64,000 nucleotides of DNA from an uncultured Elusimicrobia bacterium (GCA_903889965.1 CAISZM010000040.1:38439-102438), one strand, 5' to 3'; shown: positions 9,748-64,000, counted from the first letter of the stretch. The notes: generated from the sequence alone by a model not told the origin. Numbers and translations: made by a program.

Positions 9748-9761
9748 AGACGGATATTTAT

Positions 9762-14083: not shown

Positions 14084-14096
14084 TACCCGAACAATT

Positions 14097-16642: not shown

Positions 16643-17781
16643 GAATAGGCATTGTGGCATTTCCTCACGATAAGGGCCATTCGGGCGCATGGGAATATAT
16701 CAGCAACATTGTCACAAGCCTGGAAAAGGCGGATACGGAGAACCATTACTTCGTATTCACGCCGCATGATTTCAAATTTTCGAATCCCAACTTTACGCAG
16801 ATACTGCTCCGGGGCGCCTGGATAAATAACCAGGCCCTGAATATACTTTGGCATCAGCTGTATCTGCCCTATGCGGTCATGAAATTCAAGATAGACGTAT
16901 TGCACCACCTGGGCGGCAACAGAAGGGGGCTGCTATGGAAGCCGTGCAAGGTCGTATTGACCATAAATGATCTCTGGCAATTCCACATCAGCGGGAAGTA
17001 CGGCCGCCTCAGGTTCTTTGGCATAATATCGCTGCTCCCCGCATATCTGCGGAATGTCTCCCGAATAATAGCGATAAGCGAAGCCACGAAGAAGGATATC
17101 GTGAAATTTCTTTCATTTCCCGCCTCGTTAATACATATTATCCCGGTAGGCGTGGAGGATATTTTTGAAAAAGCCGGGGCCGAACCCGGGAATACACAGG
17201 GCGCGCTTGAAAGGTACGGACTCAGCGGAAAGTATATTTTTTGCGTTTCGCGGCTGGAGCATCCGGCGAAAAACCACGTTGCGCTCATTGAAGCCTTCGA
17301 GGCGCTGCGAAGAAAGACACCGATCCCGTACAAGCTGGTCCTTGCGGGGCCTGATTGGAACGGGGCGGAAGTGATAAAAGAACGCGCAAGGAAGTCCGGC
17401 TTCGCCGCCGATATAGTATTTACGGGACATATCCCGAGGGAGGATCTGCCGTATTTATATAAGGGAGCGGATCTTTTTGTTTTCCCGTCGCTATTCGAGG
17501 GCTTTGGCATACCGGTCGTTGAGGCAATGGCCAGCGGGACCCCCGTTATCTGTTCCAACACGTCCTCCTTGCCGGAAGTTTTGGGCGGCTGCGGGCTTAT
17601 GTTCGACCCCGGAAATCCCGCCGAAATAGCCTCATGCATGAACGAGATGCTGACACAGCCAGAACTGAGAAGTTTTTTTGTGGCCAAAGGGCTTGAAAGG
17701 GCCAAGTGCTTCGGCTGGGAACAGATAGCGGTACGAACGGTGGAAATTTACAGGAGCGTGGGAAGGGGAGAAACAGCCTGA
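16639..17781 (+). CDS. family 4 (GT-B) glycosyltransferase
   Basis: 380 aa with an ATGA overlap with the upstream gene. It carries 'VFPSLFEGFGIPVVEAMASGTPVICSNTSSLPEVLG'. Confidence 0.87.
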   Translation: MRIGIVAFPHDKGHSGAWEYISNIVTSLEKADTENHYFVFTPHDFKFSNPNFTQILLRGAWINNQALNILWHQLYLPYAVMKFKIDVLHHLGGNRRGLLWKPCKVVLTINDLWQFHISGKYGRLRFFGIISLLPAYLRNVSRIIAISEATKKDIVKFLSFPASLIHIIPVGVEDIFEKAGAEPGNTQGALERYGLSGKYIFCVSRLEHPAKNHVALIEAFEALRRKTPIPYKLVLAGPDWNGAEVIKERARKSGFAADIVFTGHIPREDLPYLYKGADLFVFPSLFEGFGIPVVEAMASGTPVICSNTSSLPEVLGGCGLMFDPGNPAEIASCMNEMLTQPELRSFFVAKGLERAKCFGWEQIAVRTVEIYRSVGRGETA

Positions 17782-36945: not shown

Positions 36946-36992
36946 AAATTCTCCTTTCGATCAGCTGAGACGAATAAAAAGCGACAAACCCT

Positions 36993-38567: not shown

Positions 38568-38689
38568 ATGTTCTCCATAAAATAGCCGCTACGGCCCGCA
38601 AGCCCCGGATTTATATTCGCAAACAGCAAGCCGCCGGTCACGGGTACCCTGAGCGCCGCACGCACATCCTGTAACGCGCGGCCCGCGGC

Positions 38690-39560
38690 TCAAGGTGCCC
38701 GGAGGACATCCTGGAGCGCGAAGGCCAGCCCGGAGCAGAAATCGGCGCCCGAGGTATGGCCGCTCTGCAGCGCCGCTTTAGCGGCCGCCGCCAGCTCCCG
38801 GCGGTCGCGCCCCGCCAGCGCCAGCATCAGGCGGCGCACCTTGGCGTTGACCTTGCCGGCGTACGAGGAGCTGATAAAAGCGTTGGATATAAAGTTTCCT
38901 CCCTCGGAGTTGAGGAAAACAAGGTCCATCCTCTCACGGGTGTTGAACCGGAGGTTCACGAGCGCGAAATAGTAACCGGCAAGCAGGCCGCTCAGGAAAT
39001 CGTCCCCGGAGGGAGTAAGACCCATGCCTAAACCGCGCATCGTTTTTGCGCCGCGCGCGTAGTCGCCTGTCCGGAAATACGCCGCGCCCTTCTTGAACCG
39101 GGCCAGCATATTCTTTTCGAAAACCCCTGGAGAAATCCTTTTCCAGCGCCGTGTCGAAAATAAAGGCCAGGCTTTTGGGCTTTGAAAAACGGATAAGCAG
39201 GAGTATGAACACCAGCGTATTGCCCAGCACGGTCTCCGGTTCCGTTCCGGCCAGCAGCGGGACCCTGGAGGAATAAAGCGCGGCCGGGTCTTTGCGAAGG
39301 CGGTTTTCGTCGACGTAAAAACAGAACCGGGAGGCGCGGAGACGCTTGGCGCCCAGGGGGAGCTGCTTCATTACGACGTTTAGCGGTCCGGCACCCGTGC
39401 GCGGCGGCACGAGGGAAACTATGAGTTTACCTTTCCTGAAATTTATTGCATTGGCAAAGGCCGAATGCAGACGGTAGTCGCCATCCGGTATGCTGTCGCC
39501 GTATGAGATGAGGTCCATAGTGTGTGCGGGCGCGGGGCCTAAAACAATTCCCGAATTCAT
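38690..39560 (-). pseudogene. DUF2877-family protein (E. coli YlbF / AllH-like) split by a 1-nt frameshift near 39115-39135
   Basis: Track ORFs 38934-39560 (N-terminal part) and 38690-39109 (C-terminal part with 'GLGMGLTPSGDDFLSGLL') overlap in different frames. The junction lies in the G4/T4/A4 runs (minus strand ...TCCAGGGGTTTTCGAAAAGAA...). Removing one base gives one ORF of about 290 aa. Confidence 0.75.
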
Positions 39561-39576
39561 ACCGCGCTGCCCGCTG

Positions 39577-40338
39577 TTACATCCAGGGCATCTTTTTACG
39601 TTCGCCTATAAAAGGGAACCGCTCGCGGGTCCTGGCTACCAGCGCGCCGTCCAGCGGGGTTCCCGCGATAAAGATACCCTCTGAAGTCCCGCAGTCCAGA
39701 ACCACTTTGCCCAGCGGGTCATAGCACATGGAGTTCCCTGAATACTCCACTTTGCCCTCCATGCCGAGGCGGTCCACGCCTATACAATACGCCTGGTTTT
39801 CCACGGCGCGGGCGCGCAGCAGCGTCATCCACTGCTCCGCGCGGCGCATCGGCCAGGCGGCTATCACCACGTAGACATCGGCCGCGGAAGCCATGTTCCA
39901 GAACAGGTAGGGAAAGCGCAGATCGAAACAAACCGCCGGCATAACGCGCAGGCCCTCGAGCTCGAACACTTCCTGGCCGGAACCGGCGCTGTAGTGTTTG
40001 TCCTCTTCGCCGAAGGCGTAGAGGTGGATCTTGGAATAGGCGTTGACGCGGTTACCCTTACGGTCCAGGGTTATAAGTTTGTTGAAACCCTTTTCAACCC
40101 CGCCGTAGGAAATATTTATATTATTTTCCGCCGCAAGTCCCGCGAAGAAGGCGCGGTCCTCGTCGTTGAGTTCGGCCGCAGCGGTATTCATCGTAAAACC
40201 GGAAAGTGTCATTTCGGAAAATATAAGCCAGTCTATTTCCTTAACGCACTTGCAGGCATCAAGCAGTTCCTCTATCTTCTTTTTATTGGCCTCCTTGTCC
40301 TCCCACTTGATATCGTACTGGCAGATCGCTATTTTCAT
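39577..40338 (-). CDS. carbon-nitrogen hydrolase, YafV/omega-amidase-like
   Basis: 253 aa. The catalytic E-K-C contexts are 'LIFSEMTLSGF', 'YSKIHLY' and 'PAVCFDLRFP'. Length and layout resemble my recollection of E. coli YafV. Confidence 0.85.
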   Translation of the reverse strand: MKIAICQYDIKWEDKEANKKKIEELLDACKCVKEIDWLIFSEMTLSGFTMNTAAAELNDEDRAFFAGLAAENNINISYGGVEKGFNKLITLDRKGNRVNAYSKIHLYAFGEEDKHYSAGSGQEVFELEGLRVMPAVCFDLRFPYLFWNMASAADVYVVIAAWPMRRAEQWMTLLRARAVENQAYCIGVDRLGMEGKVEYSGNSMCYDPLGKVVLDCGTSEGIFIAGTPLDGALVARTRERFPFIGERKKMPWM

Positions 40339-40372
40339 AATGATACGTTCTCCGTGGATCGGTCAACCGCCC

Positions 40373-42793
40373 TTACCTGCGGCCTCTGACTTGTGACTTG
40401 CGCCTGTTCAGCATGGCAAGCGCCACTTTTTCTTTTGTGACAGGCATGGATTGTATCCTTACCCCGACGGCGTCGGCCACGGCGTTCGCTATAAGCGGGG
40501 CGGCCGGTATCATGGTGTGCTCTCCCACGCCGCGCGCGCCGTAGGGTCCGTCGGGCTGGGCTACCTCGATGATTATCGGAACCACCTTCTCGGGCATATC
40601 CATAACCGTAGGTATTTTGTAGTCCGAAAAGTTGGGGTTCAGCAGGCGCCCCTTCTCGTTGAAGCGCATGTCCTCGTAGAGCACGGTGGCGAAGCCCTGC
40701 AGCAAGCCGCCCACTATCTGGCCCCTTACAAGGTCGGGGTTTATGGCCTTGCCGCAGTCGACCGCCAGCACGGCTTTCTTTATCTTCATCTTGCCGGTCT
40801 CCCGGTCCACTTCCAGTATTATGCCGGCCGAGCCGGTAGTGTAATGCACGTTGGGATGGCCGCCTTGCCCCGTTTCCGGGTCGCTTATGGCCGAAGCGAA
40901 TTCCGGCATGAACATGCCGGTGCCCATTATGGGTCCGCCCTTGAAGGTGTGATCGTCGGCCTGTATGCCGTTGATGACGAAATCGCGCAGGCGGAGCTCG
41001 AATTCGGGCCGCGTGCGGCATTTAACTTTTTCGTCCTCGAGGTAGAGGGTGCTCTTGTCGAGGCAGTGCACACGCTGCACCAGGCCGAAGATCTTCTCCC
41101 TGGCCTCGATGGCCGCGCGCTTGACGGCGTTGCCGCAGCCCCAGGTAACGTGGGAGCCCACCGTCTGCCACTCGTAGGGGTTGCGGTCGGTATCCGGGGT
41201 CTCCACGCGTATCTTGGCTACGGGCACGCTCAGCACCTCGGACGCTATCTGGGCCATCACGGTCAGGAGGCCCTGCCCGATCTCCATGCCGGAAACAAGT
41301 ATGTTGATGCTGGCGTCCTCGTTAAATTTCAGGAAGGCGCTGGAACTGGCGTTCGGGGGCATGGCGGGGGACTTCCAGAAGCAGACCAGGGACTTGCCTA
41401 TGGCCTTCTTCGGGTCCTTGGATCTTTCTTTAACGCCCCATTTAATTTCCTTCTCCACTTTTTCTATGGCCTCGCGTATGCCGTTGGGATTCATGTGCGC
41501 GCCGTAGGGCAGAGTGTCGCCTTCCCGGATGGCGTTCCTTTTGCGGAAGGCCACCGAGTCCACCCCGAGCTTCTCCGCCATGCGCGTGATATGCGACTCC
41601 AGGCCGAAGAGAAATTCGGAATAGCCGAAGCCGCGGTAAGGCCCGCCGGGGGGGAGATTGGTATAGATGCACATGGAGTCGATGCTGAGATTGTCCACCC
41701 TGTAGGGACCGCTTGCGGAGAGGCCGGCCGCGTTGACGACGTTGGCGCCGTATTCCACGTAAGCGCCGGCGTCCCAGTAAAGCTTAAAATCCAGCGCGGT
41801 TATGCGCCCGTCCTTCTTTACGCCCATTTTCACCTTCGCCGTTACGCCCTGGCGCTGGTAGGTGTTGTAAAATTCCTGCGCGCGGCTCCACAGCACTTTG
41901 ATGGGACGGCCGGGAACCGACATGGCGAGCGCCGCCCCGATTATTTCCATGCTGACCCCGGCCTTGCCGCCGAAGCCGCCGCCGATGTAAGTGCTTATTA
42001 CCCGCACGTCCTTATGGCTGATGCCGAAGGGCTCGAGCGCCTGGGCGAAGACGTTCCTCTGGGTGAAAGGCGACTGGGAGGCGGTCCACATGGTGAGGCG
42101 GCCGGAATCGTCGTAGAGGCCTATGACGGAATGCGGCTCGATAGCGCAATGCGCGTAGCGCGGGACGCAGTAGGTGTCCTCCATGACGAGGTCGGCTTCC
42201 TTGAAGCCTTTGGCGAGGTCGCCCTTGCGGGTTTTGCGCCAATGGGCGATATTGGTGCCCGGCTGGGGGAAGAACCACGGCACATGACGGTAGCTCTTCA
42301 GGTCGGGGTGGACGAGGGGGGATTTTTTATCCAGGGCCTTTACGGGATCGAAGACAGGGGTGAGCTCCTCGTATTCCACCGCCACGAGGGCGGCACCGCG
42401 CAGGGCCGTTTTGGGGTCGGTGGCGACCACGGCGGCCACCTGCTCTCCGACGAAGCGCACCGTGTCGGTGGCGAAGACATAGCGATCGGTCATGTAGAGG
42501 CCGAATTTATGGGTGAAACTGCGGCCGGTGACCACTTTTACCACGCCGGGCAGTTTCTCGGCTTTGGAAACGTCTATGGACTTTATCTTCGCGTGGGCGA
42601 GGGGGCTTTCCACCACGGCGGCGTAGAGCAGGCCGGGGCCGAATTCCAGGTCGTCGGTATACTTGGCGGCGCCTTTTATCTTTTCCCAGCCATCCACGCG
42701 CAGCACGCTTTTGCCGACCACATCCAGTTCCTCGACGCCTTTTCCGGACTTAGCCCCCTTCCCGGGTTTAGCTATAATTTTCTGTAGGTCCAT
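40373..42793 (-). CDS. molybdopterin-binding large subunit of an XDH/CoxL-family hydroxylase
   Basis: 806 aa from the Met at 42793 (GAGGAT upstream); the track start at 42919 is an extension. It has 'GKSVLRVDGWEKIKGAAKYTDD', 'GGGFGGK' and 'ARGVGEHTMIPAAPLIANAV'. Confidence 0.9.
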   Translation of the reverse strand: MDLQKIIAKPGKGAKSGKGVEELDVVGKSVLRVDGWEKIKGAAKYTDDLEFGPGLLYAAVVESPLAHAKIKSIDVSKAEKLPGVVKVVTGRSFTHKFGLYMTDRYVFATDTVRFVGEQVAAVVATDPKTALRGAALVAVEYEELTPVFDPVKALDKKSPLVHPDLKSYRHVPWFFPQPGTNIAHWRKTRKGDLAKGFKEADLVMEDTYCVPRYAHCAIEPHSVIGLYDDSGRLTMWTASQSPFTQRNVFAQALEPFGISHKDVRVISTYIGGGFGGKAGVSMEIIGAALAMSVPGRPIKVLWSRAQEFYNTYQRQGVTAKVKMGVKKDGRITALDFKLYWDAGAYVEYGANVVNAAGLSASGPYRVDNLSIDSMCIYTNLPPGGPYRGFGYSEFLFGLESHITRMAEKLGVDSVAFRKRNAIREGDTLPYGAHMNPNGIREAIEKVEKEIKWGVKERSKDPKKAIGKSLVCFWKSPAMPPNASSSAFLKFNEDASINILVSGMEIGQGLLTVMAQIASEVLSVPVAKIRVETPDTDRNPYEWQTVGSHVTWGCGNAVKRAAIEAREKIFGLVQRVHCLDKSTLYLEDEKVKCRTRPEFELRLRDFVINGIQADDHTFKGGPIMGTGMFMPEFASAISDPETGQGGHPNVHYTTGSAGIILEVDRETGKMKIKKAVLAVDCGKAINPDLVRGQIVGGLLQGFATVLYEDMRFNEKGRLLNPNFSDYKIPTVMDMPEKVVPIIIEVAQPDGPYGARGVGEHTMIPAAPLIANAVADAVGVRIQSMPVTKEKVALAMLNRRKSQVRGRR

Positions 42794-42902
42794 ATTATCC
42801 TCGCTATACCGCGCCGAGATCTTATTGCAAGTGTCTGTTCTTACAAGGGAGCCGCCGCCGGGTTTTACGCGCTCCGGGACCGTGCTTTGCCGGGAAGCGG
42901 GC

Positions 42903-43610
42903 TTACGCCGGCTTCGCAACCCGGCGCTGCGGCCTGAAATAGCGCGTCATCCTTCGAAAACAGAGAGCGGCATTATAAAACGCAAGCCTCGATCTCTCGG
43001 CAAGACTTACTTTCAGGATGTCCTTGCGGGCATAAACACTGTCGGACTTATCCTTGAACCAAACCGCGTAATTATTGGTCTTCATCCAATTCCGTATTTC
43101 CTTCAAGAAGGGGTTCAAATAGTATTTGCCGTGCGTTTCGATCGATATCACCGCGGGACGGCTGACCATATGCTTTAAGACGAACCATTCACTGCCCTCA
43201 ACGTCTATGACAGCCAGATCTATCCTGCCGTTATCCAGCGAAGCGAATCGGCAGGAATCGACAACGAAACTATCCTTATCGGAAGGAACATAGCCGTCAT
43301 TCACCACGGCGGGCGTATCGTGCCCGCCGATAAATGTGGAAGATGCGCAGTGATACAGCTCGACAGAGCCCTCTGTGTCCGACACGGCTTTATTTACTAT
43401 TTTTACGCGGCTATTGCCGCTGAAATATTCGCGTATCTTTTGAACATAACCGGGATCCGCGTCGACCAGCAGCGCCTCGCATCCGTCATTGATAAAATCC
43501 AGGACCATGGAAGTTTCCGGAAGATAAACGCCGACTTCCGCGACATAAGCGGGCTTGAACGGTTTTTTCGCACAGCGCAGATAAATTTCCTTTTTTTGCA
43601 TGAGGCGCAC
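42903..43610 (-). CDS. FkbM-family methyltransferase
   Basis: 235 aa starting at GTG 43610 or ATG 43601. 'IDLAVIDVEGSEWFVLKHM' is the FkbM-type block. Hand count over 43021-43200 gives 84/180 = 47% GC, against 36/60 = 60% at 42301-42360. Confidence 0.75.
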   Translation of the reverse strand: MRLMQKKEIYLRCAKKPFKPAYVAEVGVYLPETSMVLDFINDGCEALLVDADPGYVQKIREYFSGNSRVKIVNKAVSDTEGSVELYHCASSTFIGGHDTPAVVNDGYVPSDKDSFVVDSCRFASLDNGRIDLAVIDVEGSEWFVLKHMVSRPAVISIETHGKYYLNPFLKEIRNWMKTNNYAVWFKDKSDSVYARKDILKVSLAERSRLAFYNAALCFRRMTRYFRPQRRVAKPA

Positions 43611-43688
43611 TGCCCTTTACCCGTTTTCCCGCTGCTTCCGGCCCGCCTTAAGAATTGCCCTCATCTTTTGGAGGGCCGCCGCCGGAAA

Positions 43689-44156
43689 CTATTTCTCCCT
43701 GGCCGCTTCCTCTATGGCCTCGACTATCGGTTCGTAGCCCGTGCAGCGGCAAAGGTTGCCGGCTATGGCCTCTTTAATATCATGCTTAGTTGGCCTGGGG
43801 TCCTTTTCAAGCAGTTCCGTGGCGGAGAGTATTATCCCGGGGGCACAGAAGCCGCACTGGAAGGCGTTCTTCTCGTGGAATTTTTTCTGCAGCCGCTGCG
43901 TCCACTTGCGGGTGTTGGCGCCTTCGAGCGTCACGATCTCCGAGCCGTCGGCCTCCACCGCGAGGGCGAGGCACGAGCGTATGGTTTTGCCGTTCATCAG
44001 CACGGTGCAGGTGCCGCAGTCTCCCCGGTCGCACCCCACTTTGGGACTTTTGATGCCAAGCTTCCCGCGCAGGACGTCAAGCAGCACGTCGCTCGGCTCG
44101 ACCGTCAAAGAAACCTTTTCACCGTTAAGTTTGAATTGTATATTGTGAAGTTTCAT
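43689..44156 (-). CDS. [2Fe-2S]-binding small subunit of XDH/CoxS-family hydroxylase
   Basis: 155 aa from the Met at 44156. It has 'GCDRGDCGTCTVLMNG', 'QCGFCAPG' and 'NLCRCTGY'. The track start at 44246 is an extension. Confidence 0.92.
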   Translation of the reverse strand: MKLHNIQFKLNGEKVSLTVEPSDVLLDVLRGKLGIKSPKVGCDRGDCGTCTVLMNGKTIRSCLALAVEADGSEIVTLEGANTRKWTQRLQKKFHEKNAFQCGFCAPGIILSATELLEKDPRPTKHDIKEAIAGNLCRCTGYEPIVEAIEEAAREK

Positions 44157-44169
44157 TTTGTATGGCTCC

Positions 44170-45063
44170 TTAACAGATGTTGCCCTCGCCGTATTTCGGC
44201 CCCTTGCCGAAAAGCCGGGCCACGGCCGTTTCAAGCCCGCGCTCAAGCATTATCTGCGCCATGTGCAGGCGGTACTCTTTGGAGGAGCGGATATCGCTGA
44301 TAGGGGAGATCTCCCCCAGTATGGCTTCTTTGGCGCCGGCCAGGATCTTCGCCGAAAGCGTATTGCCGTTCAGCACCGCCTCGGTTTTGGGGCAGCGGGA
44401 GGGTTTGGGGCCAAGCGCGCAGGCGGCGACGCGGTAGGTCTTGTCCGCGAAAGCCGCGACTGCTATCCCGCCCTGAGCCAGGTCCTCTCCTTCGTAGCGG
44501 GAAAGCTTCATGTAGCAGCCGGCGTGGCTGCCGGCCGGCTGGCGCATTTCAACGGCGGTGACTATCTCCTCCGGCAGCAGGGCGGTTTTCTTCGGGCCGG
44601 TGAACCAGTCCGCGATCGCTATGCGCCGCTCCCCGTTTATGCCGCGGGCCACTACTTCGGCGCCGTAAACCGCCAGCGCCGGGGCGGAATCGGCGGAGGG
44701 TACCGCTGAACATATGTTGCCGGCCAGCGTGGCCCGGTTGCGCACGCCCGTGGAGGCGATGGTAAGCGAGGCTTCCCAAAGCAGCGGGAACCTGCTTTTT
44801 ACGAGCGCGGAGCCTATAAGGTCGGAAAAAGTGACCAGGGCGCCGATACGCAGAACTCCGCCTTTAAGAGCGAGCCCGGCCAGCTCCTCAAGGGCTTTCA
44901 GGTCCACGATCACGTCGGGCCGGGCGATGTTCTCTTTAAGGTGCACCACCAGGTCCGTGCCGCCTGCTAGCGCCCGCGCTTTTTCGCGGTAAAGCGAAAA
45001 GACATGGAGGGCTTCGTCCATGTCTTTAGGTTTGACGTACTCAAATTCAGCGGTAATAGGCAT
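44170..45063 (-). CDS. FAD-binding medium subunit of XDH/CoxM-family hydroxylase
   Basis: 297 aa with 'ALAGGTDLVVHLKE' and 'TLAGNICSAVPSADSAPAL'. Confidence 0.9.
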   Translation of the reverse strand: MPITAEFEYVKPKDMDEALHVFSLYREKARALAGGTDLVVHLKENIARPDVIVDLKALEELAGLALKGGVLRIGALVTFSDLIGSALVKSRFPLLWEASLTIASTGVRNRATLAGNICSAVPSADSAPALAVYGAEVVARGINGERRIAIADWFTGPKKTALLPEEIVTAVEMRQPAGSHAGCYMKLSRYEGEDLAQGGIAVAAFADKTYRVAACALGPKPSRCPKTEAVLNGNTLSAKILAGAKEAILGEISPISDIRSSKEYRLHMAQIMLERGLETAVARLFGKGPKYGEGNIC

Positions 45064-45153
45064 AATTCATCTCCAGCTCAAAGTGCGGAACGGATAGTGC
45101 GGAGCGCAGGTAAAAATCGCCCTCCGCCGCCAGCTATCCGCGCTTAACTCCCG

Positions 45154-45969
45154 TTACGCCGTCCAGGCCACGACGCGGCCCATGGCCGACTCAAGCTCAA
45201 TGCCCTTCAGGGGGAAGAAGCCCAGCCAGCAGCGTTTATTGGAAAGTTTTTCGATGTCGCCGCCGAGGTTCTCGGCGTGCACGAGGCGTTTCGGGAAAAG
45301 CTTCAGGTGCATCACCTGATAGTATTCCTCGCTGGGGAACATCTCGTCCCATTTTTTGCCGTAGTTCTCCACCAGCTTGTTCTCGGCCTCGGTGAACAGC
45401 TTCGGATGCCAGTTGCGGATTATGGTGTTCATGGGGTGGTCGGCCGAGCCGCAGTCCACGCCTATCCACTTGAATTTCATCGCGAGCGCCCACTTATGGA
45501 ATTTGGGGCCCGGCCCCGGGTGCTTGCAGAAATACCGCACTTCGTCACATGTGTTTTTTTCATACCAGGCGTATTTATGGTATCCGGTATTGATTATTAA
45601 AATATCGCCCTTGCGGATATCGGCGCGTTTCATGAGCATCTCAGGCTCATAAAGGTCGTAATCCCCCACGTCTTTTGAGATATCCACAACTACGGCGTTG
45701 CCTATCCATTCCTTCATTGGCACCTCGCCTATGGTGCGCCCGGCGCTGTAAAAATGGATCTCACCGTCCATATGCGTGCCCACATGGTTGGAAGTCGTCA
45801 TTATCTGGCCGTTGGCGCCCTGGCCCATATGCGCGCCGGCTATGCGCTTGAAATACTGGAGCTGCAGCGGCATGTAGCTCGGCCACGGGGGGGTATGGAT
45901 GCTCAGCGGCTGGGTAAGGTCGTACATCTTCGCCTTTTCCATGAATTTGATGAAGTCGTTGGGTCTCAT
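45154..45969 (-). CDS. cyclase-family metal hydrolase (kynurenine formamidase / isatin hydrolase family)
   Basis: 271 aa. The HxGTHxDxxxH motif is 'HVGTHMDGEIH', and 'IGVDCGSADHP' is also present. A strong SD (GGAGGAAAA) lies upstream. Confidence 0.85.
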   Translation of the reverse strand: MRPNDFIKFMEKAKMYDLTQPLSIHTPPWPSYMPLQLQYFKRIAGAHMGQGANGQIMTTSNHVGTHMDGEIHFYSAGRTIGEVPMKEWIGNAVVVDISKDVGDYDLYEPEMLMKRADIRKGDILIINTGYHKYAWYEKNTCDEVRYFCKHPGPGPKFHKWALAMKFKWIGVDCGSADHPMNTIIRNWHPKLFTEAENKLVENYGKKWDEMFPSEEYYQVMHLKLFPKRLVHAENLGGDIEKLSNKRCWLGFFPLKGIELESAMGRVVAWTA

Positions 45970-53698: not shown

Positions 53699-54271
53699 CT
53701 ATCGCTGGGAGGCCACGGAGTCTTCTACCAGTTCGCAGATTATATGGGCAGCCAGTATATGTATTTCCTGCACCCGGGGCGTATCCGTTTCCGCGGCCAG
53801 GAAGGCGAGGTCGCAGTATTGTTTTATCGCGCCCCCGTTCTTCCCGAAAAAACCGACGACGGTCATTCCGATCTCTTTAGCCTTGACCGCGGCCTTCAGG
53901 ACGTTCTGACTGGAGCCGGAGGTGGAGATAACTATAAGCAGGTCGCCCCTGCGCCCGAGAGCCTCCACCTGGCGTTCAAAAACCCTGTCGAAGCCGTAAT
54001 CGTTGCCGAGGCAGGTCAGTACGGAGGTGTCGGAGGTAAGCGCCACGGCGGCGATCGCGGGCCGTTCTTTTTTAAAGCGTCCCACAAGTTCGCCAGCGAT
54101 GTGCTGGCTGTCAGCCGCCGACCCGCCATTGCCGCAGATGAGTATTTTTCCCCCGGACGAGGCGGTCCCGGACAAGGCGCCGGCTATGGCTACAAGCGTC
54201 CGGGGCGCGGCCGCAAGGGCGGCCGCCGCCGCGATGTGGCGGGAAATAGCGGATGAGATCTTGTCTTCCAT
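53699..54271 (-). CDS. gmhA: SIS-domain D-sedoheptulose-7-phosphate isomerase
   Basis: 190 aa with '[22 protein letters not shown]', '[18 protein letters not shown]', '[10 protein letters not shown]' and 'RVQEIHI'. Confidence 0.9.
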
Positions 54272-57002: not shown

Positions 57003-57045
57003 CGCTGGAAGCCCGCGGGTGCGGGAGGGGGAAATATCCATCGAA

Positions 57046-57070
57046 GCCTTGCCCTCTACCAGGGCAAGGC
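57046..57070 (-). terminator. stem-loop just downstream of the glycine-rich protein gene (terminator-like, weak U-tract)
   Basis: GCCTTGCCCT / AGGGCAAGGC form a 10-bp perfect stem with a 5-nt loop, 14 nt after the stop codon. Only UUCG follows, so termination efficiency is uncertain. Confidence 0.45.
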
Positions 57071-57083
57071 CAGGCCTTCAGTT

Positions 57084-59723
57084 TCAGTTAGGGTATCGGA
57101 TAATTACGATACCGGAGCCGCCGGAGCTGCCGGCAGGAACCCCTGTGTTATTCGCGCCGCCGCCGCCGCCGCCGGTATTCGCGGTCCCGGCCCCGGAGCC
57201 GGCGCTGGGGTTTGCGCCATAGCCGCCGCCGCCAGTTCCGCCCGCGCCGCCGGTCCCGCTGTAAGCAGCCCCGCCGCCGCCGCCCGCGTAATACACAACT
57301 GAACCGGAAAAAGAGTTGGCCACGCCGGCGCCGCCCGCGCCGCCGCTTGGCCCCGTTCCATTACCGCCAACGGCGCTTGCGCCGCCGCCGCCGGCGCCGC
57401 CGTACCCGCCGCCCGAGCCGCCGGCATGGCCTGTGCCGTCCCCGGCCGCCCCGGCCGTGGAAAAGTAACCCGAATTTCCGCCGCCGCTGCCGTTACTGGC
57501 GCGCCCGGTGGTTGGTTGCTGAGCGGTGACGTTGGAAGCGCCGCCGCCGCCGCCGCCGCCTGCGATCAGCCCGTCAAAGGAAGAGTCAGTCCCCCGGGAA
57601 CCGGCGATAGAATTAGCGCCGCCAGCGCCGCCAGCGCCGACGATCACGTTATACGTGCCCGCGGTTATGGGCATGGCATTACTGACCACGACTCCGCCCG
57701 CACCGCCGCCGCCGGCATAATAAATACCGCCGCCTCCTCCGCCGCCGCCTACGACAAGAACGTCAACCGCTCCCGAACCTGTTACGGTAAACACCCCGGA
57801 GGTCGTGAATTTATGGATACGGTAGCCGCCGGCGTCCAGCACGCTATTTCCGCCGCCGCCGCTGAAATCGCTGTCAGTAATATTGTACGCGGTCCTCCAT
57901 GCCGTACCGTTATAGAACTCTATTTTAGAAAGCGTGCTGTTGTATCGCAAACTGCCTGTCGGCGGGCTCACGGGGCGCTCCGCGCTGGTGCCGACCGGGA
58001 GCTTAATTGCGCCCGTACCGCCCACATCCAATGTGGCGGTCGGAGTTGTAGTTCCTATACCGACATTGCCGCCGCCCTCAGCCAGCGTGATATTTTTGTA
58101 GCCGGTTCCCTGCTCGATAACGCTGATAGCAAGCCGTCTGTTCGCCGCCGCCGGGTCTGTTACCAGGCCCACAGTTCCCTGCAGCTGTGAAGCCGCTGCG
58201 TCGTTGGAAAATATACCTATTACTCCCTGCTGGCCGCCGCCGCTAGCCGTTGCTTTGGGGCCAGCGCCGACCAACACTCCGTTATCGTTGGGGAGATTCG
58301 CATGAGATCTGAAATGTGCGGCACCGACCACATCCAGCGCGACCGCCGGATTGCCTGTCCCTATGCCGACGCCGCCGTTCGAGACGATCAGCCCCGACGA
58401 TATGGTAACCCCCGCGGCGGAAGCATTATGCGCCGTGAACGCCGCCGTCGAAGTGAAGGTATTCGCGCCCGTGAAAGTCTGTGTGGAGGACAGGCTGAGT
58501 ATCCCCGCGAGGGCCGAACCGTCCCCGTAGTATTTGCCCGCGTAGATCCCGCCGCCGCCCGTCATGCGGATCACTTCGGACGCGCCGGTGGATATAGCCA
58601 GTATAGTTCCGGCCTCGCCCGCCCCGGAAGAAACCGTCAGCCTGTAATTCGGGTTCGTGGTCCCGATACCGACATTGCCTCCGGAGCGGTACAGATCCGC
58701 GCCGGAAACGGTCCAGTTGGAACCCGTGCCCGGGCTAAGAACGGCCCCGTTGACGCGTATTTCCCCGGCATTGATAGACCCCGCTACCTCGAACTTGTAA
58801 TTCGGGCTCGCGGTCCCGACGCCGACGCTGCCGTTGTTCAATACCACGAACGTCGAACCGCCGACACCGAACAGGAGGTTCGCGCCGCTTACTCCCGCGC
58901 CGTTTATCTGGGCGCTTGAGATATTTACTATCGGCTTATTCGCCATGTTCAGGGTAGTAGTGGCTATATGGGTACCCAGGCCGTCGCCGACCGAAGTTAT
59001 CCCGGTTACCTTCGAAGCGGAAAGGCTTGTGATCCATGCCGGATCGGAGTAGGAGCCGGAAGTATACACGCCGTTAGTGACGGTGGCCGCGTTGCCGAGT
59101 ATATCTACACCGTAAGATCCGGCCCTGAGATTCGCGGGATAGACGGAAGCGACGGCTACGGATGAAGCGATGACAGCCGGCCCCAGCGTGCCGGCCTGAA
59201 TATCGGCGGCCGCTATCACGCCCACCCCTATATCGGCGGCGCATGCCCAGAGCCTCGAAGTGCCGTTCCATTTCAGGACCTGGCCGTCCGCGCAGCCGTT
59301 ATTCTCAAGCTGGGCCGGGGACAGCCTGGCGTCGGGGGAAAGGCCGCCGGCCACAAGGGCGTAGGGCGAAGAGACGATCTCCTCGCGCGGGCTCATCACG
59401 TCGGAATTGACTATGGTCTCAAGATAGCGGGCCCCCGAAAAAGTGGCGGTGGAAATATCATACGGCGAGCCGACGTCCAGGATAACGCTGAAAATGCCGT
59501 TGCTGATATACAAAGTCTGCTCCGCGCTGGTCCACACCAGATTGCCGCCGTTAACGGCGTCGTAGATCTTGAAGACAAGGGTCTTGCTGCCTGTGTACGG
59601 CTTATCGTCCTCGTCGATCCTGCCCTGGTAGTTAAGTTTTAACGGTACGGCGGCGCGGGCCGGTGATACCGCGGACAGGACGCCGAACAAAGCCAACAGG
59701 ACGCCGAAAGTTAATTTAGTCAT
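57084..59723 (-). CDS. secreted fibre-like protein with tail-fibre-type repeats and a C-terminal glycine-rich domain
   Basis: 879 aa with signal peptide 'MTKLTFGVLLALFGVLSAVSPARA'. The N-terminal module is 'LNYQGRIDEDDKPYTGSKTLVFKIYD...LVWTSEQ'. There are four 'G[NSG]VG[IV]GT..P...L.V' motifs (residues ~298, 349, 450, 552) and 'GSLRYNSTLSKIEFYNGTAWRT'. From about residue 631 a Gly-rich domain runs 'GGYRIHKFTTSGVFTVTGSGAVDVLVVGGGGGGGG...GGSGIVIIRY'. Confidence 0.8.
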   Translation of the reverse strand: MTKLTFGVLLALFGVLSAVSPARAAVPLKLNYQGRIDEDDKPYTGSKTLVFKIYDAVNGGNLVWTSAEQTLYISNGIFSVILDVGSPYDISTATFSGARYLETIVNSDVMSPREEIVSSPYALVAGGLSPDARLSPAQLENNGCADGQVLKWNGTSRLWACAADIGVGVIAAADIQAGTLGPAVIASSVAVASVYPANLRAGSYGVDILGNAATVTNGVYTSGSYSDPAWITSLSASKVTGITSVGDGLGTHIATTTLNMANKPIVNISSAQINGAGVSGANLLFGVGGSTFVVLNNGSVGVGTASPNYKFEVAGSINAGEIRVNGAVLSPGTGSNWTVSGADLYRSGGNVGIGTTNPNYRLTVSSGAGEAGTILAISTGASEVIRMTGGGGIYAGKYYGDGSALAGILSLSSTQTFTGANTFTSTAAFTAHNASAAGVTISSGLIVSNGGVGIGTGNPAVALDVVGAAHFRSHANLPNDNGVLVGAGPKATASGGGQQGVIGIFSNDAAASQLQGTVGLVTDPAAANRRLAISVIEQGTGYKNITLAEGGGNVGIGTTTPTATLDVGGTGAIKLPVGTSAERPVSPPTGSLRYNSTLSKIEFYNGTAWRTAYNITDSDFSGGGGNSVLDAGGYRIHKFTTSGVFTVTGSGAVDVLVVGGGGGGGGIYYAGGGGAGGVVVSNAMPITAGTYNVIVGAGGAGGANSIAGSRGTDSSFDGLIAGGGGGGGASNVTAQQPTTGRASNGSGGGNSGYFSTAGAAGDGTGHAGGSGGGYGGAGGGGASAVGGNGTGPSGGAGGAGVANSFSGSVVYYAGGGGGAAYSGTGGAGGTGGGGYGANPSAGSGAGTANTGGGGGGANNTGVPAGSSGGSGIVIIRYPN

Positions 59724-59741
59724 ATCGCCTCTTTTAATGCT

Positions 59742-60311
59742 CTACCGTATGATCATCAGTTTGCCGGTCTGGGTTCTGCCGTCGGTTTTGACGACATAAA
59801 AATAGACGCCGCTCGCCACGCTTTGCCTTGCGTCGTTCGTGACATCCCAGTCGAGATAGTCATTTTCGTCCGCTTTCGTCAGGCTCCGTACGGATTCGCC
59901 CGCGAGATCGTATATTTTCACGGCCGCCGTGTGCGCGAGCCCTTTGAACGTTATTTTCGTGTGCCCCGCCGAGGGCTTAAAGGGCACGGGGTAGGCGTGG
60001 ACCGGCGCCAGGGGGGTGGCCGTGTCGTAAGGTATCGCCGAGGCGTTAACGAAGCCGCCTCCGACGTCCATGCCGTCCGCGGAACTGCGGGCCCAGCCCA
60101 GCCCCCCGCTTATCATGGAGGGGGCTATGTGCAAATTGCTTCCGTAAATATTCTGGCCGCCAGCGGCCCAGCCGCCCGTTTTCACCTTGACGGCGCAAAA
60201 AGCTGTGCCGGCCGCGCAGAAAAGCAGGAGGCCAAATCCGGCGCGTGCGCAGCATACGGGCCCCCGGGCCCGGAGAAGGCCGCGGATACCGCCGGTCAGA
60301 TGTTTTATCAT
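59742..60311 (-). CDS. small secreted protein ending in a T9SS-type-A / FlgD-Ig-like C-terminal sorting domain
   Basis: 189 aa with an N-terminal hydrophobic signal-like segment. The C-terminal ~80 aa, 'AYPVPFKPSAGHTKITFKGL...VKIYDLAGESVRSL...WDVTNDARQSVASGVYFYVVKTDGRTQTGKLMIIR', matches the Por-secretion-tail pattern. Confidence 0.7.
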   Translation of the reverse strand: MIKHLTGGIRGLLRARGPVCCARAGFGLLLFCAAGTAFCAVKVKTGGWAAGGQNIYGSNLHIAPSMISGGLGWARSSADGMDVGGGFVNASAIPYDTATPLAPVHAYPVPFKPSAGHTKITFKGLAHTAAVKIYDLAGESVRSLTKADENDYLDWDVTNDARQSVASGVYFYVVKTDGRTQTGKLMIIR

Positions 60312-60322
60312 AGCCGCAAACC

Positions 60323-61327
60323 TTACTGTATGTATATCGTTCCGAAACTGCCGCTGTTTATGCTGTCACTGCCGAACCTGGCGGTGAGGCCGAATTTGTG
60401 GACATTGCCCAGGTCGCCGTAATTCGAATACGAATAATCTATGTCCAGGTCGATATCCTTCCACCTACGGGTAAGACTCCCGAGCATCAGCCCCAGGCCG
60501 AACGAAAAAGGCGAGCCGATATCGCGCCTGTTATCCCAACCCAGCCGAAGCACTACCCTTTTATCCACCGGCTGCTCGAGGCCGGCGCATAAATAAGCGT
60601 CCTCCCCGTGCGGGAAAACCGCCTCGCCGCTCAGGGTGGAGGGGAAACCCTGGATGCCCACAAGCCTGCGCTTTAAAGCGAAACCGATCTTGGCCCGCCG
60701 CGGCAGAGAGTACCCCTCGTCGATAAATTTTACCCGCGAGCCCAGGTTCTGGACGGCCAGGCCGATATTCAGGCCGCTGACCCGCGGCTTGACCAGAACC
60801 CCGAGATCCGCGGCGAAGGCGGCGGCGGTATCCCCGTCGAGCCGTTCCCTGATATACTTCAAATTCAGACCAGCCCCTATCTCCTTGAAAACAGGATTAC
60901 TATCGAAGCCCATATAAGCTGCATGGGCGATGTTCAGCGCCATATCGGAGGAGGTCACGGGATCCGTGGGGGTGTCGGCGGCGTCATAACCGTCCATCGG
61001 GCCCACCGTAAGGAAGTTCACCGCGATGGCGCTGACCCCTATCTTCTTGTAGGGTTGGGCGTATACGAGCCACTCGTGGTTAATATCCTCCAGATAACGG
61101 CTGTGGGCAAGAGAGGCGGAAGGTTCCTCGACCCAGGCGATACCGGCGGGATTGTAAGAGATAAGGTTCGGATCCCCGCTGTAAGAGGAAAAGGCGCCGC
61201 CCAAAGCCGCGGGCCTGGCGGCCGGGTCTATTTTAAGGAACGCAGCGGCCGAAGCGCCCGCGCCTGAAGCGAAAAGGGAAGTCGACCGTACCAGAATAAG
61301 TGTTAAAAGAAGCGCACCTTTTCCCAT
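60323..61327 (-). CDS. PorV/PorQ-like outer-membrane beta-barrel protein
   Basis: 334 aa from the Met at 61327; the track start at 61513 is an extension. After the signal peptide, 'AAAFLKIDPAARPAALGGAFSSYSGDPNLISYNPAGIAW' matches the PorV-family N-terminal signature. The rest has an alternating beta-strand pattern ending in an aromatic residue. Confidence 0.7.
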   Translation of the reverse strand: MGKGALLLTLILVRSTSLFASGAGASAAAFLKIDPAARPAALGGAFSSYSGDPNLISYNPAGIAWVEEPSASLAHSRYLEDINHEWLVYAQPYKKIGVSAIAVNFLTVGPMDGYDAADTPTDPVTSSDMALNIAHAAYMGFDSNPVFKEIGAGLNLKYIRERLDGDTAAAFAADLGVLVKPRVSGLNIGLAVQNLGSRVKFIDEGYSLPRRAKIGFALKRRLVGIQGFPSTLSGEAVFPHGEDAYLCAGLEQPVDKRVVLRLGWDNRRDIGSPFSFGLGLMLGSLTRRWKDIDLDIDYSYSNYGDLGNVHKFGLTARFGSDSINSGSFGTIYIQ

Positions 61328-61516
61328 ATGTGGCAGGAACCGCCTCGCTGTAGCTGGCTGCTGGATACCGTACAGAAAAGATATTACGGAAAGATGACGG
61401 TTTTCAAGCCGCGTTTTCCCGCCTTGCCCATCCGCACAGGCAAACAATTTTACTATATAAATGCGCTTATTTTTACACGCGGGCGTGTAATGTTCTATAC
61501 TTACCTTTAGCAAGTC

Positions 61517-63184
61517 ATGAAAATCGCCATCGCGCAGATAAACCCGAAAGTGGGCGACATAGCCGGCAATGCCGCGCTGGTCGAAGCTTTTGCCCGGCGG
61601 GCCGAAGCGTTGGGCGCCGACCTTGCCGTTTTCCCAGAGCTGGCCCTCACGGGATATCCTCCGCTGGACCTGCTTGAAAAGGAAGATTTCATACGGGACA
61701 ACCTGCGCGCCCTGAAGCGCCTGGCTGACCTCGGACTAAAAACCGCCCTCGCCGTAGGCTACGTGGACAGGAACCCTGCTAAAAAAGGAAAGGCCCTGCT
61801 TAACTCTATAGCCCTTATAAGCGGCGGGCGGATAGCCGCCAGGCGGCACAAGTCGCTGCTTCCGACCTACGATATTTTCGACGAAGCCCGCTATTTCGAG
61901 CCGGCGCGGGAGAACCGGCCTCTCAGGTTCAAGGGAGAGGTTATCGGCCTGACCATCTGCGAGGACATCTGGGCCGGCACGGCGCTCCTTCCCCGCCGCC
62001 TGCTGTACCGCAACGACCCGGTTAAGGTCCTTGCCGGCGGGAAAGCGTCCATCGTAATAAATATCTCGGCTTCGCCTTTTTACCGCGGTAAAAGTTCCCT
62101 CCGCCTCAGGATACTCTCGCGCCTGGCCAGGAAAATGCGCGCCCACATAGTTTACGCCAACCAGGCAGGCGCCAACGACGAACTTATTTTCGACGGGAAC
62201 AGTTTCGCGCTCTCTCCCTCCGGGAAGGTGTCGGCCCGTGCCGCGGCCTTCGCCGAAGACCTGGTTCTCGTGGATACGAACCTCCCGGCGGCCGCCCCGG
62301 CCAAAGCCGGGAAGGTGGGTGCCGCAGAGCGCCACGAAGGCGCCGCGGAGATCTGCGCCGCACTGACCCTGGGCATACGGGATTATTTCGGCAAGATGGG
62401 CTTCCGGCGGGCGGTGCTGGGGCTCAGCGGCGGCATAGATTCGGCCGTTGTGGCCGCCCTCGCCGCCAGGGCGCTCGGCCCCGGTAACGTGACAGGCGTG
62501 CTTATGCCTTCACAGTACACCTCACCCCGAAGCTCCCGGGACGCGCTCGCGCTGGCGCGGAACCTCGGCATACGTACGATGAACATCCCGATAAAAAATA
62601 TCTACGGCGCCTTCCTCCGGGAACTTAAAACCGGCGGCTCCCGCGGCGAAGTGAGCCTCACCATGCAGAACCTGCAGTCCAGGGCCCGCGGAAGCGTTTT
62701 AATGGCCCTCGCCAACGCCAATAACTGGCTGACCCTCGCCACGGGGAACAAGTCGGAGCTCGCCGTGGGTTACTGCACGCTTTACGGCGACACGGCCGGC
62801 GCGATAGCCCCCATAGCGGACCTTTTTAAAACCGAAGTTTACCGCCTTGCGGCTTTTCTCAACAGCGGGGGGGAAATAATACCCGCGGCCGTCATAAAAA
62901 GGCCGCCGACAGCGGAACTTAAGCCCGGCCAGAAAGACCAGGACGACCTGCCGCCGTATAAGACGCTGGACGAGATAGTGCGCCTCTATATGGAGGAGAA
63001 CCGCACCCCGGCGGAAATAGTCGGCAAAGGCTTCAAAAAGGCTCTGGTGCTTTCCACCCTCCGGCGCCTCGAGGCCAACGAGTACAAGCGCAAACAGCTC
63101 CCGATAGCCCTTAAAGTGACCGAGAAGTCGTTCGGCTACGGCAGGAAAATGCCGATAGTCAAATCCCTGGATTTCATAAGATAA
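61517..63184 (+). CDS. nadE: glutamine-dependent NAD+ synthetase
   Basis: 555 aa. An N-terminal C-N hydrolase domain ('MKIAIAQINPKVGD', 'TICEDIW') is joined to a C-terminal synthetase domain ('LGLSGGIDSAV'). Confidence 0.94.
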   Translation: MKIAIAQINPKVGDIAGNAALVEAFARRAEALGADLAVFPELALTGYPPLDLLEKEDFIRDNLRALKRLADLGLKTALAVGYVDRNPAKKGKALLNSIALISGGRIAARRHKSLLPTYDIFDEARYFEPARENRPLRFKGEVIGLTICEDIWAGTALLPRRLLYRNDPVKVLAGGKASIVINISASPFYRGKSSLRLRILSRLARKMRAHIVYANQAGANDELIFDGNSFALSPSGKVSARAAAFAEDLVLVDTNLPAAAPAKAGKVGAAERHEGAAEICAALTLGIRDYFGKMGFRRAVLGLSGGIDSAVVAALAARALGPGNVTGVLMPSQYTSPRSSRDALALARNLGIRTMNIPIKNIYGAFLRELKTGGSRGEVSLTMQNLQSRARGSVLMALANANNWLTLATGNKSELAVGYCTLYGDTAGAIAPIADLFKTEVYRLAAFLNSGGEIIPAAVIKRPPTAELKPGQKDQDDLPPYKTLDEIVRLYMEENRTPAEIVGKGFKKALVLSTLRRLEANEYKRKQLPIALKVTEKSFGYGRKMPIVKSLDFIR

Positions 63185-64000
63185 TGAGCAAGAAGCTCCC
63201 TTTAATATTCCTGGCCCTGATCTTTTCAATAGCGGCTTCCGCCGGCGCCCAGCCGCTGAAAAAGAAACGCCTGGTGAAGCCAGGCCCAAAAGCGAATGAA
63301 GAGATCTCCAGGCCGGAAGCGAAGACCAAGGAAGATATCCTTAAAACCGTGGAACAATCCACCGCGCCTTTGAAAGAGGGCCTGCTTTCCAAAACCCTCT
63401 ACGCCATCACCATAAACACCAAGTACGGCCCCATAATCCCCTTCCCGGTGGTGGACTCCAGCAAAGACCTGGGCCCGAGTTTCGGCATAATGCCGGTCAT
63501 AGCCATAAAGGACCGGAAAACGCAGGACATAAAGTCGGTGGTGGTCCCGTCCGTCACCTATAATGAGCACCTCCGCACCACGCTCACCTACCGCCACTAT
63601 ATTTTCATCGACGACAAGCGGTATTTCATACTGCGCGCCTCCCATTCCGAACGCGTAGAAAGGGAACTGATGGCGTATTATTATACCCCGCAGTTCCTGT
63701 CGTCCAACTTCAGGCTGAGCATGGAGGCAAAGCACTGGGTCACCGGCAAGCCCTCCTTCTACGGCCTCGGCATAGACTCAAAGCTGGCGGATAAGGCTAA
63801 CTATTCGCTGCAGACGACCGGTGAAGAGATCATACTGGACATACCGGTGATAAACCATTTTTTCCTCAACCTCGACCACTCCTATTTCGAAAAGAAAATA
63901 GGGGAAGGCCCCGTTACCGACGGGCAGCTTAAGGATATTTTTCCCGGCTTTTACCCGGAAGCATCAGACATGCACACCTTCCACACCAACCGCGTCTCGT
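63184..64000 (+). CDS. hypothetical secreted protein (possible outer-membrane protein), 3' end outside window
   Basis: This ORF is not in the track because no stop is reached. The ATG overlaps the nadE stop (TAATG at 63182-63186). It has signal peptide 'MSKKLPLIFLALIFSIAASAGA' and the frame stays open for 272 codons to the window edge. I am not confident of any family. Confidence 0.6.
   Translation, partial: MSKKLPLIFLALIFSIAASAGAQPLKKKRLVKPGPKANEEISRPEAKTKEDILKTVEQSTAPLKEGLLSKTLYAITINTKYGPIIPFPVVDSSKDLGPSFGIMPVIAIKDRKTQDIKSVVVPSVTYNEHLRTTLTYRHYIFIDDKRYFILRASHSERVERELMAYYYTPQFLSSNFRLSMEAKHWVTGKPSFYGLGIDSKLADKANYSLQTTGEEIILDIPVINHFFLNLDHSYFEKKIGEGPVTDGQLKDIFPGFYPEASDMHTFHTNRVS

Follow-up and report, generated by a model that had tools for sequence, protein, structure and literature searches.

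A PorV/PorQ-family barrel, a small sorting-domain protein and a fibre-like protein encoded as one cassette in Elusimicrobiota: a candidate module for surface-fibre anchoring

Three tandem genes and their products

The 64-kb stretch of DNA analysed here (GCA_903889965.1, CAISZM010000040.1:38439-102438), hereafter the window, contains three minus-strand open reading frames (ORFs) in tandem, at 60323-61327, 59742-60311, and 57084-59723, separated by gaps of 11 and 18 nucleotides. They encode, in this order, an outer-membrane β-barrel, a small protein ending in a C-terminal sorting domain (CTD) typical of type IX secretion systems (T9SS), and a fibre-like protein devoid of a CTD, designated the fibre. 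A signal-peptide-like start was read from the sequence of each product. The gene order and spacing had been proposed in an earlier annotation of the window from its sequence alone (the sequence-only reading) and agreed with the ORF calls; the starts and coordinates of the three ORFs were also identical in the public gene calls on two ENA contigs. The features of the locus are as follows.

57004-61516, minus strand: whole cassette, about 4.5 kb, inserted between nadE and the conserved promoter region of rpsB
61378-61407, minus strand: promoter-like site 5' of the barrel gene (TTGAAA, 18-nucleotide spacer, TATCTT), solely a pattern match in a consensus scan
60323-61327, minus strand: PorV/PorQ-family outer-membrane β-barrel, 334 residues from the ATG, signal peptide ...SLFA/SGAG with predicted cleavage after SLFA (NF033709, profile, AlphaFold2 model)
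60189-60311, minus strand: small protein, signal segment, residues 1-41, hydrophobic GFGLLLFCAAGTAFCA followed by VKVK
60015-60188, minus strand: small protein, glycine-rich N-region, residues 42-99, aligning with xTGGxFSV..SGG..NMGGP..SGGxFSL of the orthologues
59745-60014, minus strand: small protein, T9SS type-A CTD, residues 100-189 (TIGR04183)
59652-59723, minus strand: fibre, Sec-type signal peptide, residues 1-24, predicted cleavage SPARA/AVPLK (read from the sequence)
59304-59651, minus strand: fibre, conserved N-terminal immunoglobulin (Ig)-like β-sandwich (N-domain), residues 25-140 (identity among orthologues, AlphaFold2 model)
57807-59303, minus strand: fibre, stalk carrying four copies of GxVGIGTxxPxxxLxV as well as the GSLRYNSTLSKIEFYNGTAWRT motif (motif search)
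57891-57956, minus strand: fibre, GSLRYNSTLSKIEFYNGTAWRT motif, residues 590-611 (motif search)
57093-57806, minus strand: fibre, C-terminal Gly_rich_2 domain, residues 640-877, variable distal tip (PF21722)
57045-57071, minus strand: perfect 11-bp hairpin, 13 nucleotides past the stop codon of the fibre gene, possible terminator (fold of 57020-57086 and sequence)

The barrel ORF can be extended upstream to a TTG codon at 61513. The hairpin located 3' of the fibre gene is not followed by a U-run and the z-score of the 67-nucleotide stretch was only -1.0, providing weak evidence for a terminator.

The barrel scored 137.1 bits against the NCBIfam model NF033709 of the PorV/PorQ family (cut-off of 90), over residues 26 to 318 of 334. 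A profile built from 58 homologues matched PorV in the PDB (6h3i_F) with an E-value of 7e-43, versus only 2e-8 to 1e-4 for TbuX and TodX. The AlphaFold2 model of the barrel had a mean predicted local distance difference test (pLDDT) score of 90.3, and its top Foldseek matches were two PorV chains, 8gl6_F, from a structure containing a bound substrate CTD, and 6h3i_F (template-modelling score, TM, of 0.67-0.68), followed by FadL (0.55). Searches with Pfam returned no match to Toluene_X (PF03349) at E ≤ 0.1, no listed match to PorP_SprF (PF11751), and a weak match to UPF0164. The distinction between PorV and FadL/OmpP1, named in the sequence-only reading among its points of refutation, was therefore settled by the profile E-values and the TM scores (0.68 versus 0.55): on this profile and model evidence, the barrel belongs with the PorV/PorQ family and not with FadL/TodX. 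The label 'PorV-like' was appropriate for the family and the fold but not at the equivalog level, since the best equivalog score was that of PorQ (NF033711, 105.1 for a cut-off of 220), ahead of PorV (NF033710, 51.5 for a cut-off of 250) and PorV2 (23.4 for a cut-off of 325), all below their cut-offs. Most orthologous barrels carry a Pro/Ala linker and a C-terminal HEAT-repeat domain, which is absent from the barrel of the window. Because it is placed after the last strand of an even-stranded barrel, the HEAT domain should be periplasmic according to standard barrel topology. The structural neighbours of the barrel model also include chains of the Bacteroidota β-barrel assembly machinery (BAM) complex (9n2d_B and 9hjm_F). 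A 2025 paper on the latter complex employs the term 'PorV-like', and PorV-type barrels may have roles outside the T9SS too.

The small protein (189 residues) matched TIGR04183 with 35.7 bits (cut-off of 23) over residues 107 to 187, i.e. at its extreme C-terminus. Its top NCBIfam match was the C-terminus of PorZ (46.8 bits), and the Pfam models Por_Secre_tail (26.6 for a cut-off of 27), CHU_C, and FlgD_ig were all marginally under their cut-offs. The earlier assignment of a T9SS type-A/FlgD-Ig-like CTD was thus confirmed by TIGR04183, with FlgD_ig just under threshold. The description of the protein as little more than a signal segment and a CTD was correct for the CTD and incorrect for the remainder, since most orthologues display a conserved glycine-rich N-region of about 60-65 residues (xTGGxFSV...SGG...NMGGP...SGGxFSL) before the CTD. 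This region is shortened and divergent in the window and in its nearest relative, L012. Lipoprotein anchoring of the small protein was ruled out, a conserved lipobox being absent across the orthologues. Similarity of the N-region to the RHS-like N-terminus 'SxSYxL...IGEP...SxNYxLxSGF' was also considered and rejected (hhalign E-value of 0.084 over 12 columns, not significant).

The fibre comprises 879 residues. The motif G-x-[VI]-G-[IV]-G-T-x-x-P-x-x-x-[LF]-x-V was found at residues 298, 349, 450, and 552. Gly_rich_2 (PF21722) matched with 78 bits for a gathering cut-off of 24.3, and the glycine content was 28-42%. No CTD was detected on the fibre with Pfam, NCBIfam, or hidden Markov models (HMMs) built from the triad families. 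The sequence-only reading was accurate in these respects, as it had described a signal peptide, four GNVGIGT-type motifs, a GSLRYNSTLSKIEFYNGTAWRT-type motif, a glycine-rich end, and the lack of a CTD. The N-domain, corresponding to the first 120 or so residues of the mature protein, was modelled as a confident Ig-like β-sandwich (AlphaFold2, pLDDT > 90 over residues 30-120). It was matched by no Pfam model, and neither the PDB nor a set of viral structures yielded a significant match. Searching a protein library retrieved 21,341 clusters of relatives at E ≤ 1e-3. Of the 150 best relatives in this library, 149 had the N-domain near the N-terminus, preceded by a signal-like segment in those inspected.

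The stalk had been associated with phage tail fibres. The PHROG family phrog_2295, whose function is unassigned, covered residues 148-878 of the fibre (187.6 bits), and phrog_25721 and phrog_20787 (virion structural protein) matched residues 571-619, over just 36 residues for the latter family. About 70 residues around the GSLRYN motif were approximately 50% identical to hypothetical proteins of cyanophages (tblastn, 9-15% of the query). The PHROG and phage tblastn searches returned no annotated tail fibre. The tail-fibre label is thus based on a PHROG without an assigned function and on a short motif common to cyanophage hypothetical proteins. 'Phage-fibre-like' appears to be a fair description of the architecture suggested by these matches, not a functional assignment.

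Host, recurrence, and mobility of the triad

Relatives of the RpsB protein bearing a taxon name (65-89% identity) were nearly all from metagenome-assembled genomes (MAGs) of Elusimicrobia, Elusimicrobiota, or Elusimicrobiales, one being labelled only 'bacterium'. The 20 genome loci containing the N-domain were all from Elusimicrobia or unclassified MAGs, and every relative found in this study was from a MAG. The Bacteroidota setting evoked in the sequence-only reading was not retained, both sets of relatives pointing to Elusimicrobiota. On the evidence of these relatives, the host phylum is Elusimicrobiota and not Bacteroidota.

A triad was defined as a barrel gene, followed by a gene for a small CTD protein and by a gene for a protein starting with the N-domain, on one strand and with short gaps. 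The layout of the window fits this definition. Scanning one genome per species with the N-domain of the fibre provided 20 loci, 17 of which contained a complete triad with unchanged gene order, all three genes being on one strand. Among the remaining loci, one was cut by the end of a contig, one (L016) lacked the small gene, and one, which was distant, had neither partner. The triads were found in at least five different flanking contexts. Thus, co-conservation of the three genes, which had been put forward as a test, was observed. For example, a Rifle groundwater Elusimicrobia MAG encodes a 40%-identical barrel, followed by a 178-residue CTD protein and an 853-residue protein; another orthologous barrel is followed by a 184-residue CTD protein and a 235-residue protein. 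The third proteins of the triads range from 235 to 879 residues and have only the N-domain in common, length and C-terminal domain differing beyond it.

Conservation was unequal along the triad. Identity between the window and the other triads was 52-61% for the CTD, 48-60% for the N-domain (46-60% across all triad orthologues), 33-46% for the barrel, and 13-39% for the N-region of the small protein. Conservation highest in the CTD and the N-domain, together with a freely varying stalk and tip, is the pattern expected of fixed docking parts combined with an exchangeable tip, to judge from these alignments. Mirror-tree correlations among the four segments (0.69-0.87) were those predicted by shared ancestry alone and were not discriminating.

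In two sister genomes (L114 and L115, RpsB 88-89% identical), nadE and rpsB are divergent neighbours located about 166 bp apart, and the junction is empty. BLASTN comparisons mapped the rpsB leader of the sisters to the window from position 57003 downwards and nadE from position 61517 upwards. One of the sisters with an empty junction (UBA11697) harbors its triad on another contig. No flanking repeats, integrase, or mobility genes were found around the insertion. Recurrence in 17 of 20 related loci makes the triad more than a chance arrangement; the comparison of these loci shows that the three genes are strongly co-conserved and are a real unit moving as one cassette.

As a control, 80 metagenome loci containing another N-domain subfamily were inspected and none had a PorV-like barrel or a CTD nearby. 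Association with a barrel and a CTD is therefore not automatic, and the link between the N-domain and the barrel is, on these counts, specific to Elusimicrobia. Other PorV/Q-like barrels related to that of the window were examined in five further contexts. In L009, L111, L113, and a second pair in L024, thus in four of the five, the product of the gene directly upstream has a CTD at its end, weakly similar to that of PorZ. For TIGR04183 (cut-off of 23), the protein of L024 clearly passed (28.2), that of L009 reached the cut-off (23.3), and that of L111 remained below it (20.6); the upstream protein of L113 displayed only FlgD-like and weak PorZ-CTD matches. With four of the five contexts showing this arrangement, these organisms seem usually to pair each CTD protein with a barrel of its own. 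In terms of gene content, the triad is a special case, with a CTD on a tiny adaptor and none on the large protein.

Other genes are found next to the barrels of related loci. Eleven triad loci (L003, L011, L015, L016, L017, L018, L020, L023, L025, L026, and L027) have three upstream genes in common, encoding a FecR-domain protein of about 600 residues, a protein of about 250 residues, and a 400-residue protein resembling outer-membrane proteins (OMPs). An SMC gene is located downstream in at least five of these loci. In the more distant L113, a FecR-domain gene follows the PorV-like barrel. The three upstream genes could encode further components. In L007, Pfam identified a Peptidase_S41 (C-terminal processing protease) gene directly upstream of the barrel. 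Clustering placed homologues of this gene upstream of the barrel in two more loci, L014 and L024, one gene further off in the latter locus. The CTDs of T9SS cargo are removed by a C-terminal peptidase. L007 also encodes, at 10758-16916, an N-domain protein of 235 residues, followed by a stand-alone HEAT-repeat protein, corresponding to the domain that other loci fuse to the barrel, and by an ORF called at 11,700 residues. None of the FecR-domain, 250-residue, OMP-like, S41 peptidase, and HEAT genes present upstream in other loci was found in the window. In another N-domain subfamily ('AVPHLINYQGRLTD...'), an N-domain protein of about 290 residues is encoded between a protein of about 800-1,100 residues and an RHS/YD-like protein of about 1,800 residues, whose N-terminus contains a double SxSYxL / SxNYxLxSGF motif. 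This arrangement was found in L034, L044, L045, L046, L050, L057, L069, and others.

SprA/Sov, the translocon protein of the T9SS, comprises about 2,400 residues, and the longest ORF of the window (879 residues) is therefore too short to encode it. The view of the genome being the 64-kb window, no T9SS family, and none of the core components SprA/Sov, GldK-N/PorK-N, and PorU, was detected among the approximately 43 ORFs submitted to Pfam, in agreement with the earlier statement that the window contains no other T9SS core gene. The HMMs built in this analysis detected no second barrel, CTD, or N-domain gene in the window. According to a 2024 paper, T9SS genes are found only in Bacteroidota and other phyla of the Fibrobacterota-Chlorobiota-Bacteroidota (FCB) group and are absent from other phyla (PMC11285876). 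The Elusimicrobiota host lies outside this range, and full-text literature searches for a T9SS or for PorV-like proteins in Elusimicrobia returned no report of either.

Proposed surface anchoring and alternative explanations

We propose, with moderate confidence, that the barrel holds the small CTD protein, which would in turn tether the CTD-less fibre via its N-domain, the triad acting as a surface-fibre anchoring cassette of Elusimicrobiales. All three products would be exported by the Sec pathway, and the PorV/PorQ-family barrel would insert into the outer membrane. The CTD of the small protein would remain uncleaved and be held by the barrel, and the small protein would hold the fibre through the conserved N-terminal Ig-like domain. 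The fibre would project from the cell, its N-terminus lying at the cell and the variable C-terminal tip, glycine-rich in this case, pointing outward. The outer membrane would be crossed via a T9SS-like translocon, yet undetected, or via another pathway. Location of the sorting domain on a separate adaptor would leave the C-terminal tip of the fibre free, and such an adaptor would be sensible if the fibre needs both a free tip and attachment by its N-terminus. We infer by analogy with PorQ-PorZ, part of the T9SS attachment complex, the contact between the barrel and the CTD, the contact between the adaptor and the fibre, the surface location, and the orientation.

Several observations weigh against this proposal. 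The barrel is far under both the PorQ and the PorV equivalog cut-offs. A 14-strand barrel of this kind is not known to move folded proteins across the membrane, and the window shows no translocon. L016 has a barrel and a fibre without the small gene. The N-region of the small protein, which would bind the fibre, is poorly conserved in the lineage of the window. The N-domain is a generic Ig-like fold present in about 21,000 clusters, many of them without a barrel partner. Finally, the HEAT domain present in most orthologous barrels, to which no role is assigned, has no counterpart in the barrel of the window.

A more far-reaching reading, which we regard as speculative and rather unlikely, is that Elusimicrobiales lack SprA and GldKLMN and rely on a free-standing display system of the outer membrane. 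Fibres devoid of a CTD would be exported or captured by a PorQ-like barrel together with an adaptor reduced to a CTD, and would be anchored by their N-terminus. The pair formed by the CTD and the PorV-family barrel would then be an older and independent module, later built into the T9SS of Bacteroidota.

Alternatively, the genome might encode a canonical T9SS at another place, and the triad might be one of its ordinary cargo neighbourhoods, with the barrel as a PorQ or PorV paralogue, the small protein as a minor cargo or a PorA-like regulator, and the fibre as an unrelated secreted protein that happens to be co-transcribed. T9SS families account for two of the three genes, PorA provides an example of a small CTD protein in a canonical system, and inspection of the genome was confined to 64 kb. 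However, chance adjacency does not explain the co-conservation in 17 of 20 loci and the joint movement of the genes, and the host belongs to Elusimicrobiota, for which no T9SS was reported in the literature searched; PMC11285876 reports no T9SS genes beyond the FCB phyla. In addition, the fibre has no CTD and would therefore be no T9SS cargo on its own. This explanation appears unlikely.

We also consider it improbable that the triad is a minimal T9SS-free device for secretion and display, in which the barrel and the CTD adaptor would carry the fibre across the outer membrane or assemble it there, possibly with the help of the HEAT domain. The cassette is self-contained and mobile, the T9SS core genes are unreported in the phylum (PMC11285876), PorA reportedly has a way of reaching the surface that is independent of the T9SS (PMC12152298), and the Pro/Ala linker and HEAT domain of most orthologous barrels suggest coupling to a periplasmic component. 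Such a device would nevertheless have neither an energy source nor, in a 14-strand FadL-like barrel, a channel of sufficient width, and the HEAT domain is missing from the barrel of the window.

It is highly improbable that the locus is a prophage or tailocin remnant, in which the fibre would stem from a phage tail and the two other genes would be unrelated host or moron genes. The match of phrog_2295 to residues 148-878, the motif in common with cyanophage proteins, and the insertion of the segment relative to the sister genomes agree with this origin. It is contradicted by the lack of other phage genes, integrase, or flanking repeats in the window ORFs scanned, by the Sec signal peptide and the bacterial N-domain, which neither the PHROG match nor the viral structure set covers, and by the presence, in 17 genomes, of the same triad amid housekeeping genes. 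That the barrel imports hydrophobic compounds like FadL/TodX, with irrelevant neighbours, is scarcely credible: FadL is the second-best structural match and UPF0164 a weak Pfam match, but the profile favours PorV by 35 orders of magnitude in E-value, no Toluene_X match was listed for the barrel of the window, and the adjoining CTD protein is conserved.

The individual parts of the anchoring cassette are members of known families according to the profile matches. Its novelty lies in the split architecture, the strict conservation as a mobile three-gene cassette, and the home outside the recognised range of the T9SS, a combination that was not described in the literature searched. The literature assigns the T9SS and the sorting logic based on the CTD and PorV to Bacteroidota and the FCB group, and both sorting parts are now found in Elusimicrobiota, packed in a small mobile cassette together with a cargo bearing no sorting signal. 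If the adaptor model is correct, the triad would provide a simple rule by which a T9SS-type anchor can display proteins whose C-terminus must stay free, a compact system of three genes whose transfer could bring surface display to other hosts, and a handle on the evolution of the T9SS attachment complex. The analysis also defines a very large family of N-terminal domains (about 21,000 clusters) without a Pfam match and offers a first functional lead for surface structures of Elusimicrobiota.

Neighbouring genes and known systems

An Omp85-family gene (63184-64000, running off the end of the window) follows nadE just upstream of the cassette, and the nadE-Omp85 pair is kept in the sister genomes. 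A SIS-domain gene (53699-54271) is located between pyrH and frr, at the same place as in the sister genomes, within the classic row rpsB-tsf-pyrH-frr-uppS-cdsA-dxr-rseP-ispG-proS. The region 7419-17781 has a lower guanine-plus-cytosine content (50-56% versus about 60% elsewhere) and contains genes of the polysaccharide/O-antigen type (FrhB-like, WecG, GT2, GT1, phosphodiesterase, Wzy_C, and two GT4), perhaps forming a surface-glycan cluster gained by horizontal transfer. A lone gene for a T2SSE-family (GspE/PilB-type) ATPase (22885-24225) is present between greA and an amino-acid kinase gene, and no other type II secretion system or pilus gene was identified beside it. The region 35542-45969, encoding the oxamate carbamoyltransferase AllG, a CoA-ligase-domain protein, a CN-hydrolase, a molybdopterin large subunit of the xanthine-dehydrogenase type, a 2Fe-2S subunit, and a cyclase, looks like a purine or ureide catabolism cluster.

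Among known systems, FadL/TodX and the treponemal UPF0164 barrels belong to the same 14-strand barrel superfamily as the barrel of the triad. The latter differs from FadL/TodX by a profile that is clearly on the side of PorV and by its partner, a CTD protein. Phage tail fibres with an N-terminal adaptor domain have the same modular build as the fibre, with a conserved N-terminal attachment, a repetitive stalk, and an exchangeable C-terminal tip. In contrast to these proteins, the fibre of the triad is predicted to be exported by Sec, its N-domain is bacterial and absent from the viral structure set, and the window offers no phage context.

In type-B systems of the T9SS, the barrel gene adjoins the cargo gene. 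Their barrels are PorP/SprF-like, whereas no PorP_SprF match was listed for the barrel of the triad, and the CTD of the triad is of type A. Their cargo bears its own CTD, whereas that of the triad is on a separate adaptor. In examples such as SprB-SprF of Flavobacterium johnsoniae and PG1035-PorP-PorE, a long surface protein bearing a type-B CTD is anchored by an outer-membrane barrel dedicated to it (PMC9143113, PMC12618676).

The smallest verified type-A cargo, PorA, sits in its full-length form on PorV at the surface of Porphyromonas gingivalis (PMC12152298). This pair is similar to the triad in that a very small full-length type-A CTD protein is bound to a PorV-family barrel, such binding being putative for the triad. 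PorA differs by its size (246 residues), its FimH-like body, its participation in PorXY signalling, and the absence of a linked fibre gene and of a barrel gene dedicated to it.

The closest likeness is with PorQ-PorZ, which is part of the T9SS attachment complex of P. gingivalis. In that species, the PorQ barrel anchors PorZ, whose CTD is retained, to the surface in a manner independent of PorU and PorV (PMC10947112). The CTD protein of the triad comprises only 189 residues, has no β-propeller body, and is encoded beside its barrel and beside a CTD-less fibre. The host of the triad belongs to Elusimicrobiota, and no PorU, PorV, or Sov partner is in view in the window. The scores also stay below both equivalog cut-offs, and most of the orthologous barrels add a HEAT domain predicted to be periplasmic. 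As in PorQ-PorZ, the triad combines a PorV/PorQ-family barrel with a candidate CTD-retaining surface protein (PMC10947112). For the idea of an adaptor or anchor, PorQ-PorZ is a precedent studied by experiment; PorQ and PorZ are also the families best scored by the barrel and the CTD of the triad, respectively.

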